A stretch of DNA of 64,000 nt from Escherichia coli (lineage in GTDB: Bacteria; Pseudomonadota; Gammaproteobacteria; Enterobacterales; Enterobacteriaceae), in NCBI RefSeq assembly GCF_003334355.1, contig NZ_QOWP01000023.1; one strand, written 5' to 3'. The translations under genes and the position numbers were made by a program. Positions 16,246-54,452 of this stretch are shown piece by piece. The notes beneath the pieces are model-generated. The model made no database searches and was not told where the DNA came from. It was given only the letters and a program-made list of their open reading frames with translations. Each line of letters opens with the position of its first letter. Positions within the stretch are counted from its first letter, which is position 1.

Positions 16246-16589
16246 ATTGCCACTCTTCTTGACCAAATGACCGCGAACAGGGTGATCACTGTCAACTTAT
16301 TACGCGGTGCGAATTTACAAATCCTTAACGTAAGTCGCAGAAAAAGCCCTTTACTTAGCTTAAAAAAGGCTAAACTATTTCCTGACTGTACTAACGGTTG
16401 AATTGTTAAAAAATGCTACATATCCTTCTGTTTACTTAGGATAATTTTATAAAAAATAAATCTCGACAATTGGATTCACCACGTTTATTAGTTGTATGAT
16501 GCAACTAGTTGGATTATTAAAATAATGTGACGAAAGCTAGCATTTAGATACGATGATTTCATCAAACTGTTAACGTGCTACAATTGAAC

Positions 16590-16603
16590 TTGATATATGT
16601 CAA
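16590..16603. promoter_or_regulatory. FNR-like site in arcA upstream region
   Basis: TTGATatatGTCAA, near match to the FNR consensus TTGAT-N4-ATCAA, about 280 bp upstream of the arcA start. Confidence 0.45.
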
Positions 16604-16880
16604 CGAAGCGTAGTTTTATTGGGTGTCCGGCCCCTCTTAGCCTGTTATGTTGCTGTTAAAATGGTTAGGATGACAGCCGTTTTTGACACTGTCGGGTCCT
16701 GAGGGAAAGTACCCACGACCAAGCTAATGATGTTGTTGACGTTGATGGAAAGTGCATCAAGAACGCAATTACGTACTTTAGTCATGTTACGCCGATCATG
16801 TTAATTTGCAGCATGCATCAGGCAGGTCAGGGACTTTTGTACTTCCTGTTTCGATTTAGTTGGCAATTTAGGTAGCAAAC

Positions 16881-41493: not shown

Positions 41494-41998
<505 letters not shown>

Positions 41999-49910: not shown

Positions 49911-49997
49911 GCGAAGGTGGCGGAATTGGTAGACGCGCTAGCTTCAGGTGTTAGTGTCCTTACGGACGTGGGGGTTCAAGTCCCCCCCCTCGCACCA
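49911..49997 (+). tRNA. leuV: tRNA-Leu (anticodon CAG)
   Basis: 87-nt sequence GCGAAGGTGGCGGAATTGGTAGACGCGCTAGCTTCAGGTGTTAGTGTCCTTACGGACGTGGGGGTTCAAGTCCCCCCCCTCGCACCA; cloverleaf with long variable arm, anticodon loop UUCAGGU, encoded CCA. Confidence 0.97.
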
Positions 49998-50412: not shown

Positions 50413-51201
50413 ATGGCCTATCGTTCCGCACCGCTCTATGAAGATATCATCTGGCGAACGCATCTCCAGCCGCAGGATGCTGGGCTTGCACAAGCCGTAC
50501 GTGCGACGATCGCCAAACATCGTGAACATTTGCTCGAGTTTATCCGCCTGGATGAACCCGCTCCGCTTAACGCCATGACGCTGGCGCAATGGTCATCACC
50601 GAATGCGCTAAGTTCTCTACTCGCGGTCTATTCCGATCATATCTATCGCAACCAACCAACGATGATCCGCGAGAACAAACCGCTGATCTCACTATGGGCA
50701 CAATGGTATATCGGCCTGATGGTGCCACCATTAATGCTGGCGCTACTGACGCAGGAAAAGGCATTAGATGTGTCGCCGGAACATTTCCATGCTGAGTTTC
50801 ACGAAACCGGACGCGTCGCCTGTTTCTGGGTCGATGTGTGTGAAGATAAAAACGCAACACCACATTCGCCGCAGCAGCGAATGGAAACGTTAATCAGCCA
50901 GGCGCTGGTTCCGGTTGTGCAGGCACTAGAAGCGACCGGAGAGATCAACGGCAAACTTATCTGGAGTAATACCGGTTATTTGATCAACTGGTATCTCACT
51001 GAGATGAAGCAGCTGCTCGGCGAGGCGACGGTTGAATCGCTGCGCCATGCCCTCTTTTTTGAGAAAACGCTCACGAACGGTGAAGATAATCCACTCTGGC
51101 GTACCGTGGTACTGCGCGATGGCCTGCTGGTGCGCCGCACTTGCTGCCAGCGTTATCGCTTACCGGATGTGCAGCAATGTGGCGATTGTACGCTGAAATG
51201 A
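50413..51201 (+). CDS. fhuF: Ferric-siderophore reductase FhuF
   Basis: 262-aa ORF with C-terminal Cys cluster RRTCCQRYRLPDVQQCGDC (2Fe-2S site). Confidence 0.95.
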   Translation: MAYRSAPLYEDIIWRTHLQPQDAGLAQAVRATIAKHREHLLEFIRLDEPAPLNAMTLAQWSSPNALSSLLAVYSDHIYRNQPTMIRENKPLISLWAQWYIGLMVPPLMLALLTQEKALDVSPEHFHAEFHETGRVACFWVDVCEDKNATPHSPQQRMETLISQALVPVVQALEATGEINGKLIWSNTGYLINWYLTEMKQLLGEATVESLRHALFFEKTLTNGEDNPLWRTVVLRDGLLVRRTCCQRYRLPDVQQCGDCTLK

Positions 51202-51238
51202 AAGCACTGCCGGGGAAGTAAACCCGGCATCATGCGGA

Positions 51239-51916
51239 TTAATAGGGATGCAACACATTACTTGCTTCGCAATGCCGCATACATAACAGAATATCTGCGG
51301 CCTCCAACAACCCTGCATCAGAACTGACGCCCAGTTTCGACATCACATTAAATTTATGTGCACGGATCGTTTTGATATTGCGTTTAAGCTGCTCGGCAAT
51401 TTGTGTCATTGAGTAGCCACGCGACATAAAGCGCAATATTTCTCTCTCCGTGGGGCTTAGCGTCCGGCTTTGGTTAATGTACCACTGATTGTTCAGTCGG
51501 TCGGTCGCCTGACGTACACCATTTAATGACAAAAAGAGTTCCTGATGAAAAATCTCCAGCGTTGACGCTTTACTTAATACACCGTCCAGCGGTGATGGCG
51601 ACAATGAACCAATCAGCCGAGCTTCAATATCATCATCCGCAATAACTAAACGCCGGGTACGCGGAAACTTAATCGCCAGTTCAGTCAGGCAAGATAATCC
51701 CTCTCTGCGCTCACTTCTCATGGCAGAAAAAGAAAAAATGACCGCCGCAAACGAGATCCGCGACATGGCATCCTGAAATGACTCCTGACTGGTATAGGTA
51801 TGGAGCTTATAAGGGTTACCCGCAAACTTTCTGAATAAACTCTCAATACCGATACTACTCATGACGCATTTTTCTATGAGTGCGACATTTCTCTTCTTAA
51901 TTCGGCTGTGTTCCAT
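51239..51916 (-). CDS. bglJ: LuxR-family transcriptional regulator BglJ
   Basis: 225-aa ORF with C-terminal LuxR-type HTH ([25 protein letters not shown]). Confidence 0.9.
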
Positions 51917-52599
51917 TCTGCGGCATCTCCATAAACAGAAGGCAAGTTAAGTTCTCTTGCACCCTGCGCGCTATTTATCCATGCATACATTTCAGCGTTG
52001 CTGTGAATTGCCAGTCGACGCATCGCACTGTTTTTTTGGGCGCTGATAGTTTTATTACTTTTCTTAAGCAACGAAGCTATCTGGTTGATGCCCCATCCTT
52101 TACCTAATAGCCGCAGTACCTTGCGCTCTGAAAGAGTGAGAATGACGGAGCGATAGCTAAAATCATGAGTTTCAGTCATTGCCGGAGAGGTCAGCATGGC
52201 GCTGATACGCTCTGCGTGCGTATTGCCGGAACGTACGGTCTTGACCAGATTCTCAATGGGTTCAACATCAGACAATAACGTCGCCGTAGGGCACATGAGC
52301 AATTCTACTGCCTGGGAATACCAGGAGCGTGACACCATGAAAACCCAGTGAATTTCCCGATATTGTGAGATTAAAGAATAATAATGTTCACAAACAGAAC
52401 GTGGATCTTCACTTTCACCGGCTAAATCAGCAATGACTAATCCGGAACGACGTAATTGTAATAAGGTAAGGTCCTCCGCAGAGGCGCTGGATATTATTTC
52501 ATATTCAGGGAAGTGAGTCCTCATGACCTCTTTTAACCCTGCTTGCATAACAGGTATTTTACTGATAACAATTCCATTTTTGCAGCATCCTGGCAACAT
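51874..52599 (-). CDS. yjjQ: LuxR-family transcriptional regulator YjjQ
   Basis: 241-aa ORF with LuxR-type HTH ([23 protein letters not shown]); overlaps bglJ by 43 bp. Confidence 0.88.
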
Positions 52600-53217
52600 A
52601 TTTCCTCCACATCCACTGTCTAAAAATCATGATGGTTTATTCAGGATATTCATTCCTTAAATGTTTCCAGCAAATTAATAGATTAAGCGAATAAATTATC
52701 CTTAGCATTCACTTTCATATCAGCATACTCCTGCTGCACAACAACTCCACTGCATGTGTCAGAAGGTTAGCATCAAATGATAACCTGGTGAAATAGCCTG
52801 GAGACATTTAAAATATCTACATTAAGTTGTTAGAAATACTTAATGAAAAACAGAAATATCATTCATTTAATTTATAATTCAATGATACCTCTTCCCGCAA
52901 AATGCAAAATCACACAACCAATATTTATTCAATAAAATCTGATTGTTTTAACTTGTTGGCATTAAAAAACGCGCCCAGTTATCTATTATCCTGATTCGTA
53001 AAGGCCAAACAATAAATTCATTATGGTGATAATATTCATGTGATAATTTGTTTGCGGCGAGAGATAATTCGCTTTTTATCACCGAGCTTCTCCCGATAAC
53101 CAGGATTAATCAGCGCAATTTTGATCTTAACCTACCGCAAAACAACCGTGCTTCATGATACAAATGAATTCTCATTATCTGAACAATACGCAGCACGTCT
53201 ATGACAAAGGGCGAGTT

Positions 53218-53988
53218 ATGCAAACTGAGCAACAGCGAGCCGTAACACGGCTTTGTATCCAGTGTGGATTATTTCTTTTGCAACATGGTGCGGAAAGCGC
53301 GTTGGTTGATGAGCTTTCCTCACGACTGGGTCGGGCGCTGGGAATGGACAGCGTCGAAAGTTCTATCTCTTCGAACGCCATAGTGCTGACAACCATTAAA
53401 GATGGGCAATGCCTGACATCGACACGTAAAAATCACGATCGCGGCATTAATATGCATGTGGTGACTGAAGTCCAGCACATTGTGATTCTGGCGGAGCACC
53501 ATCTGCTGGATTACAAAGGCGTAGAGAAACGATTTAGCCAAATTCAGCCATTACGTTACCCAAGATGGCTGGTAGCCTTAATGGTTGGCCTTTCTTGCGC
53601 CTGTTTCTGTAAACTCAATAACGGTGGCTGGGATGGTGCCGTCATCACCTTCTTTGCCAGTACGGCCGCGATGTATATCCGCCAGCTACTGGCACAACGT
53701 CATCTTCATCCACAGATCAACTTTTGCCTCACCGCTTTCGCCGCCACCACTATTTCCGGTTTGCTTTTGCAACTTCCCACCTTCAGCAATACACCCACCA
53801 TTGCAATGGCCGCCAGCGTTCTGCTGCTGGTGCCGGGCTTTCCGTTGATTAATGCCGTCGCCGATATGTTTAAAGGCCACATCAATACCGGACTGGCACG
53901 CTGGGCGATCGCCAGTCTGCTGACACTGGCTACCTGCGTCGGCGTGGTGATGGCACTGACGATTTGGGGGCTACGCGGATGGGTGTGA
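53218..53988 (+). CDS. yjjP: ThrE-family membrane protein YjjP
   Basis: Start trimmed to [17 protein letters not shown] (256 aa); multi-pass. Confidence 0.85.
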
Positions 53989-54452
53989 TCGAGTTTCTGT
54001 TTGCATTGGCGCAGGATATGATCCTCGCCGCCATTCCAGCGGTCGGCTTTGCGATGGTGTTCAACGTTCCCGTTCGGGCATTACGCTGGTGTGCGCTGCT
54101 TGGCGCGATTGGTCATGGTTCCCGAATGATCTTAATGACCAGCGGGCTGAATATTGAGTGGTCAACCTTTATGGCTTCTATGCTGGTCGGCACCATTGGT
54201 ATTCAATGGTCGCGCTGGTATCTGGCGCATCCGAAAGTGTTTACCGTGGCGGCTGTTATCCCTATGTTTCCTGGCATATCAGCTTATACTGCAATGATTT
54301 CGGCGGTAAAAATCAGTCAGCTAGGCTACAGCGAACCGTTGATGATTACCCTGTTAACCAACTTTCTTACAGCTTCATCAATTGTTGGTGCGTTATCCAT
54401 CGGTCTTTCCATTCCTGGATTATGGTTGTACCGCAAGCGCCCTCGCGTATAA
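53979..54452 (+). CDS. yjjB: Membrane protein YjjB (partner of YjjP)
   Basis: Start trimmed to [14 protein letters not shown] (157 aa); overlaps yjjP by 10 bp. Confidence 0.85.

Follow-up and report, generated by a model that had tools for sequence, protein, structure and literature searches.

In E. coli K-12, H-NS represses the yjjQ-bglJ operon and LeuO activates it, as three papers (PMC5025477, PMC3950696 and PMC4264507) state with reference to Stratmann 2008. The title of the cited work (Stratmann, Madhusudan & Schnetz 2008, J Bacteriol 190:926) names the divergent yjjP as regulated by H-NS and LeuO too. In a genomic SELEX study (PMC3946193) the yjjP<>yjjQ spacer bound the RpoD holoenzyme in vitro and was marked for H-NS sites. 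A preliminary description of the DNA investigated here had put forward the silencing of yjjQ-bglJ by H-NS and its activation by LeuO, in agreement with these three papers and with the H-NS mark in the SELEX study. BglJ together with RcsB activates leuO, according to papers from the laboratory of the 2008 study and from others, and the locus feeds the BglJ-RcsB/LeuO circuit (bgl, leuO and other loci) as well as the control of motility by YjjQ.

Two other elements of the regulatory circuit to which yjjQ/yjjP belongs, the upstream silencer of bgl and the leuO promoter region, are likewise AT-rich DNA under H-NS silencing that LeuO or the insertion of an IS element can lift. Unlike these two, the yjjQ/yjjP spacer has a single AT-rich centre that serves two divergent operons. 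For a region of 555 bp in K-12, H-NS binding is reported at the centre and LeuO sites both there and across the yjjP promoter. The spacer also resembles the silent or weak promoters that are activated by IS elements, e.g. bgl and other IS targets in the mouse gut, in that IS1, IS2 and IS5 insert repeatedly upstream of yjjP and raise its expression; unlike at bgl-type promoters, yjjP gains only modestly, by about 2-fold under aerobic conditions. With the promoters of the mar/sox/rob regulon it shares the exact 15-mer of a strong MarA ChIP-seq peak.

The window, that is the whole 64-kb stretch of DNA analysed, corresponds to the E. coli chromosome from dnaJ to tsr and is the reverse complement of the K-12 sequence around the K-12 coordinate origin. 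Gene names were taken from a 100% identical match in E. coli CUVM53 together with the RefSeq and K-12 annotation, mapped gene by gene onto the window. The 3.7 kb surrounding the spacer are 100% identical to CUVM53, and the same 3.7 kb were found at a coverage of at least 80% in 5,412 of 5,426 complete E. coli genomes. Locus, orientation, neighbours and the 618-bp length of the spacer are those of the K-12 region described in 2008; this is an already known system, correctly identified, and not a new instance. Anatomy, composition, conservation and the presence of published sites were determined here, and the effects and binding of H-NS and LeuO, the binding of MarA and the effects of IS insertions are taken from the literature.

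The divergent region between yjjQ-bglJ and yjjPB had been delimited exactly in the preliminary description, the start codon of yjjQ ending at 52599 and the annotated ATG of yjjP lying at 53218 (Table 1). The flanks had been read as two LuxR-type regulator genes on one side and a two-gene membrane-protein operon on the other, and domain and family matches of YjjQ, BglJ, YjjP and YjjB agree. Residues 153-206 of YjjQ match the GerE/LuxR HTH domain PF00196 in Pfam (E = 1e-7), BglJ matches its own NCBIfam equivalog (383 bits, cut-off 176), and YjjB matches the threonine/serine-exporter equivalog NF007391 (326 bits, cut-off 249). On the ThrE model YjjP corresponds weakly to the N-terminal half and YjjB to the C-terminal half, both below the ThrE cut-off. 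Judged by these curated models, YjjP and YjjB would form a ThrE-type two-part exporter; the K-12 label is putative succinate exporter.

The start of yjjP has been annotated in two ways. The upstream in-frame ATG was used in older annotation, and the 2008 work on K-12 is said to have used the upstream start as well, the length of 555 bp fitting the ATG at 53155. The N-terminal peptide MQTEQQRA and an AGGG at 53208-53211 are kept across genera, so that the start at 53218 is favoured and the conservation speaks against the ATG at 53155.

Table 1. Coordinates of the genes, sites and segments of the yjjQ/yjjP locus in the window.
Feature	Position	Strand	Basis and remarks
bglJ, LuxR-type regulator	51239..51916	-	GC 0.454; overlaps yjjQ by 43 nt
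yjjQ, LuxR/GerE-type regulator, operon gene 1	51874..52599	-	GC 0.449, GC3 0.434
yjjQ/yjjP divergent intergenic control region	52600..53217		618 bp, GC 0.34; in 5,424/5,426 complete E. coli genomes
yjjQ Shine-Dalgarno GGAGG	52604..52608	-	kept in at least 80-90% of the 71 species
Promoter-like site CTGATA-17-GATAAT toward yjjQ (predicted)	52695..52723	-	consensus scan; same hexamers listed for yjjQ-bglJ in PMC3946193
MarA site (marbox) GCATCAAATGATAAC	52770..52784	+	exact 15-mer from the MarA ChIP-seq study PMC5684230
AT-richest core	52800..52999		25-30% GC, 100-bp GC profile
Upstream module ATTTAAAAT..15 nt..GTTAG	52806..52833		cross-genus alignment of 71 loci
Promoter-like site ATGAAA-17-TTTAAT toward yjjP (published prediction)	52843..52871	+	hexamers for yjjP in PMC3946193, placed by reading the sequence
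Hypervariable central segment, 179 bp	52845..53023		13/18 differences to K-12
Three independent adaptive IS insertions (K-12, mouse gut)	52962..53107		supplementary tables of PMC5094792
yjjP-proximal block	53103..53133	+	identical in all six Escherichia sequences; core TTGATCT (53121-53127) at least 90% conserved in 80 species
Upstream in-frame ATG for yjjP	53155..53157	+	gives 277-aa YjjP and 555-bp spacer; older annotation
yjjP, ThrE-family membrane protein	53218..53988	+	GC 0.521 (normal); K-12 annotation: putative succinate exporter subunit
yjjB, second exporter subunit	53979..54452	+	GC 0.500 (normal); overlaps yjjP by 10 nt

No intergenic region of the window is longer than the spacer, as had been claimed; the runner-up has 516 bp against its 618 bp. 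The claim that it is also the most AT-rich held for extended stretches and failed for percentages. The lowest-GC 600 bp in all 64 kb (52491-53090) have a GC content of 0.33, the next lowest 0.378, and 100-bp windows below 40% GC form their longest run from 52731 to 53135, whereas GC contents of 0.31-0.333 occur in five shorter spacers (51-210 bp), which thus lie below the 0.340 of the yjjQ/yjjP spacer. All other spacers pooled have 0.443, and against the 0.519 of the window the spacer is markedly more AT-rich than the genome average. The final 120 bp before yjjP are near normal in GC.

Many A/T tracts had also been noticed in the spacer. They are numerous, 29 against a window median of 10, but not in excess over composition: the 29 AnTm tracts of at least 4 bases compare with 27.7 +/- 2.9 predicted from the dinucleotide composition of the spacer itself (p = 0.39), so that the tracts follow from AT-richness and carry no extra signal. 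Nor was the high-affinity H-NS motif TCGATAAATT clearly enriched in the spacer, where 3 matches with at most 2 mismatches were found against 1.9 +/- 1.4 in shuffled sequences. TpA steps occur at twice the window average.

The spacer and its K-12 counterpart are both 618 bp long and align without gaps at 97.1% identity. Among the 18 substitutions, 13 fall in the central segment, where the divergence is 7.3% as compared with 0.8% and 1.5% in the two flanks, and the spacer of this strain departs from K-12 mainly in an AT-rich core that is unconstrained in sequence. Within Escherichia, represented by the window, K-12 and four further species or clades, 245 bp next to yjjQ and 190 bp next to yjjP are well conserved, and the central segment of the window diverges by 47-50% from the other Escherichia species with its GC content unchanged. 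Across genera the alignable sequence consists of the two ribosome-binding sites, the TTGATCT core of the yjjP-proximal block and the upstream module, and almost nothing else.

The upstream module has the consensus (A/T)TTA(A/G)AA(A/T), about 15 nt, (A/G)TTAG and in most genera is located upstream of yjjQ at a distance of 160-250 nt. Apart from it and the ribosome-binding site, no non-coding element on the side of yjjQ is strongly conserved in the window and at the homologous positions of 70 further loci. Loci with pobR-pobA between yjjQ and yjjP have retained the module too, which assigns it to the control of yjjQ, where it may act as a promoter or as a LeuO site.

Identity to K-12 was uneven among the neighbouring genes. 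It was 99.6% for yjjQ, 99.4% for bglJ and 99.6% for dnaT, and 95.8% for yjjB (53979-54452) and 97.0% for fhuF (50413-51201). Such differences point to a mosaic of recombined segments around the locus.

The two promoter-like sites, one toward each operon, score 9 of 12. Sites of this kind were barely commoner in the scan (n = 7) than in shuffled sequences (4.4 +/- 2.0). The MarA 15-mer occurs once in the window, where 0 occurrences are expected by chance, and was found to be conserved within Escherichia only in the cross-genus alignment of 71 loci. A '+++' MarA peak is listed for yjjP<>yjjQ in the ChIP-seq study of ETEC H10407 (PMC5684230), and the site predicted under it is gcatcaaatgataac. 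The presence of the published site sequence, matched by sequence, would make the spacer a putative target of the mar/sox/rob regulators with a marbox bound by MarA. Unlike classical class I and class II marboxes, the site would lie about 90-100 bp from either predicted promoter, and in those parts of PMC5684230 that concern the peak no regulatory effect of MarA on yjjQ or yjjP was found. A Fur box at GATAATATTCATGTGATAAT (53028-53047) had been considered on account of the nearby fhuF and was rejected, a serum study listing yjjQ-bglJ under H-NS/LeuO and not under Fur. A terminator-like hairpin at 53056-53073 was likewise discarded as one weak match at chance level.

When K-12 evolved in the mouse gut, IS insertions in the spacer were selected repeatedly, and the expression of yjjP rose about 2-fold aerobically. 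The insertions are located at -256 (IS5), -185 (IS2) and -111 (IS1) relative to yjjP (PMC5094792). Their positions may be transferred to the window because the two spacers align without gaps, and they correspond to about 52962, 53033 and 53107, respectively, all between the AT-rich core and yjjP. Natural variants of the spacer also occur, as about 13 complete E. coli genomes were without an intact spacer, the number with a split or deleted one being put at roughly 13-19. In one of these, E. coli 203740 from human stool in Mali, an IS1 is located 60 bp upstream of yjjP (locus L085, 3030-4045); a deletion in this strain has removed the remaining spacer together with the 5′ portion of yjjQ, and bglJ is left without its promoter.

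The spacer is, with high probability, an H-NS-silenced and LeuO-opened divergent switch region of yjjQ-bglJ and yjjPB. Its action may be depicted as follows: The AT-rich centre with 25-30% GC would recruit the nucleoid protein H-NS, and the repressive nucleoprotein complex formed there would leave the promoters on both sides almost inactive in laboratory culture. The core is probably the main zone of H-NS nucleation, in line with the central H-NS binding that the 2008 study reportedly describes. The LysR-type regulator LeuO would bind the same region and remodel or displace the H-NS complex, by which yjjQ-bglJ would be de-repressed, and the activation of leuO by BglJ and RcsB would then close a feedback loop. 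The MarA site would represent a further input. An IS element that lands between the AT-rich core and yjjP would raise the expression of this gene, presumably because yjjP is then no longer coupled to the silencing complex, and such insertions are selected in the mouse gut; a promoter directed outward from the IS element is the alternative. The locus is described as textbook-style H-NS silencing with LeuO anti-silencing, none of which is new. Modest additions are that the compositional anomaly does not reach beyond the spacer and the regulator operon, that it is conserved over the sampled Enterobacteriaceae, which speaks against a plain old transfer, and that the AT-rich core is free in sequence and constant in composition.

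The preliminary description had also suggested an older horizontal acquisition from the lower GC content and the silencing. Of the 54 window genes with a length of at least 300 nt, yjjQ and bglJ rank lowest in GC (z = -2.7 and -2.5), with GC3 z-scores of -3.25 and -2.2, respectively, and the GC z-scores of yjjP (-0.25) and yjjB (-0.98) are ordinary. Base composition and codon usage set apart yjjQ, bglJ and the spacer but not the two genes on the other side.

A search anchored on YjjP, with one genome per bacterial species, yielded 80 loci, all from Enterobacteriaceae, and 76 of these had enough upstream sequence. Homologues of YjjQ and BglJ were found upstream of yjjP in the same orientation in 75 of the 76 informative species, representing 17 named genera that include Escherichia, Salmonella, Citrobacter, Klebsiella, Enterobacter, Kosakonia and Kluyvera. 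The GC contents of yjjQ and bglJ were below those of the flanks in all 75 species (means -0.084 and -0.068, respectively). The two operons are directly adjacent in 53 species, with spacers of 347-709 bp and GC contents of 0.30-0.44 (mean 0.365), as compared with 0.467 in the control spacer yjjA-opgB. Outside Escherichia the protein identity was 47-74% for YjjQ and 35-69% for BglJ, against 83-91% for YjjP and 87-95% for DnaC.

In 22 species an insert of 2.6 kb separates yjjQ from yjjP; these are K. pneumoniae (locus L062, 3493-6000) and 21 others from Klebsiella, Raoultella, Kluyvera, C. amalonaticus/sedlakii and Intestinirhabdus. The two ORFs of the K. pneumoniae insert are read as an AraC-type regulator and a 4-hydroxybenzoate hydroxylase, putatively pobR-pobA. 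The divergent arrangement of E. coli is hence not universal, and the junction has a history of insertion and deletion. Enterobacter sp. Bisph1 (L038) was the sole informative locus with a BglJ-like match but no YjjQ match upstream of yjjP. In this genome dnaT and dnaC were also absent downstream, which suggests a local rearrangement or loss.

Synteny in 75 of 76 species and a GC deficit in every species with the pair imply that any transfer predates the sampled genera, which excludes a recent acquisition. The suggestion of horizontal acquisition therefore found little support, the anomaly being partial and the deficit present in all 75 species. The distribution was not patchy, neither among species nor among the complete E. 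coli genomes (Table 1). No integrase or transposase is annotated from the tRNA-Leu gene to dnaT, and no flanking direct repeats of at least 14 nt were found in 50900-53400. Repeats in the spacer itself are short inverted and direct ones only, as is typical of AT-rich DNA.

With the deficit uniform across genera, the low GC content looks maintained, be it by silenceability, low expression or mutational bias, and not like a relic. Tentatively, and with rather more doubt than confidence, we read the GC deficit of yjjQ-bglJ and the spacer as a selectively maintained silenceability. The core would then be a landing pad for H-NS that is coded in composition and free in sequence, and its disruption by IS elements would be a ready evolutionary switch. 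This reading is based on the core keeping its composition over at least 17 genera while its sequence turns over, with about 50% divergence even within Escherichia, and on the conservation of only short promoter-proximal modules, among them the one upstream of yjjQ.

A gain of yjjQ-bglJ, and of these genes only, may have taken place before the sampled genera of Enterobacteriaceae diverged. As a fuller account, the pair would have been gained by an ancestor of the Enterobacteriaceae and inherited vertically since, with amelioration of its low GC blocked by H-NS silencing, by low expression or by a selective advantage of silenceability. Universal synteny, a GC deficit that is shared by all 75 species and amounts to 2-14 points, the fast evolution of both proteins and the indel-prone junction, with pobR-pobA between yjjQ and yjjP in 22 species, are in keeping with such a history. 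However, the sample consists of Enterobacteriaceae, and an ancestral, never-transferred and weakly expressed pair of regulators drifting AT-ward would give the same pattern. We consider the gain by an ancestor less likely than not, though worth keeping in mind.

The four genes and the spacer might instead form a fairly recent horizontally acquired island, the AT-richness being the composition of the donor and seen by H-NS as foreign. To this would fit the position of yjjQ and bglJ as the lowest-GC genes of the window and the much faster divergence of YjjQ and BglJ between genera than of YjjP. A tRNA-Leu gene lies 1.2 kb beyond bglJ, and tRNA genes are a common type of integration site. But fhuF, of normal GC, is situated between that tRNA gene and bglJ, yjjP and yjjB are ordinary in composition, and no integrase, transposase or flanking direct repeat was found at the locus. 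The same arrangement in 75 of 76 species of 17 genera, the near-universal presence of the spacer in E. coli and a deficit in all 75 species, unlike a decaying relic, make a recent island highly improbable. An unannotated small RNA, riboswitch-like leader or small protein is likewise a highly improbable explanation of the unusual length of 618 bp, for although the published yjjP promoter prediction implies a leader of about 340 nt and several ORFs of 21-44 codons are present, no match was obtained in an Rfam scan of 52000-53800 (E <= 1), the putative leaders of yjjQ and yjjP did not fold significantly better than shuffles (z = -0.94 and -0.12), the ORFs, some of which lie in the hypervariable core, are hit by single-base indels or by the 47-50% divergence within Escherichia and were rejected as genes, and nothing in the spacer is annotated in K-12 or RefSeq.

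Outside the locus the window and CUVM53 are not collinear: offsets of +66 and +126 were observed, the window has one tRNA-Leu gene where CUVM53 has three, and it has no IS5 in lgo. In the segment 49603-49997 there is one tRNA-Leu(CAG) gene (49911-49997), as against three tandem copies in K-12 (leuQPV) and in CUVM53, and the spacer between rsmC and the tRNA gene contains duplicated REP-like units instead of further tRNA-Leu copies. The single tRNA-Leu gene could be a real difference in copy number or an assembly collapse of the tandem array. The second-longest spacer of the window (yjjW/yjjV, 516 bp, GC 0.59) holds at 41503-41990 4.8 tandem copies of a 101-bp GC-rich unit of REP/BIME type with 94% matches. 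The alignment with CUVM53 is interrupted at 23952-24016, where the window carries about 60 additional bp between yjjX and trpR; the sequence 23957-24104 is about 82% identical to the 101-bp REP-type unit of the yjjW/yjjV spacer.

The yjtD-yjjY spacer beside arcA (16246-16644) holds the second-longest AT-rich run of the window (16275-16634). The mouse-gut studies that describe the yjjP IS insertions also report an adaptive yjjY/yjtD +TTAT change and IS insertions in the regulatory region of arcA. Finally, lgoD-lgoR-lgoT (59067-62717) is intact in the window and is disrupted by an IS5-family element in CUVM53, otherwise the closest strain; the lgoD/lgoR spacer (60105-60227) has a GC content of 0.325, and that of lgoR is low as well (0.468).
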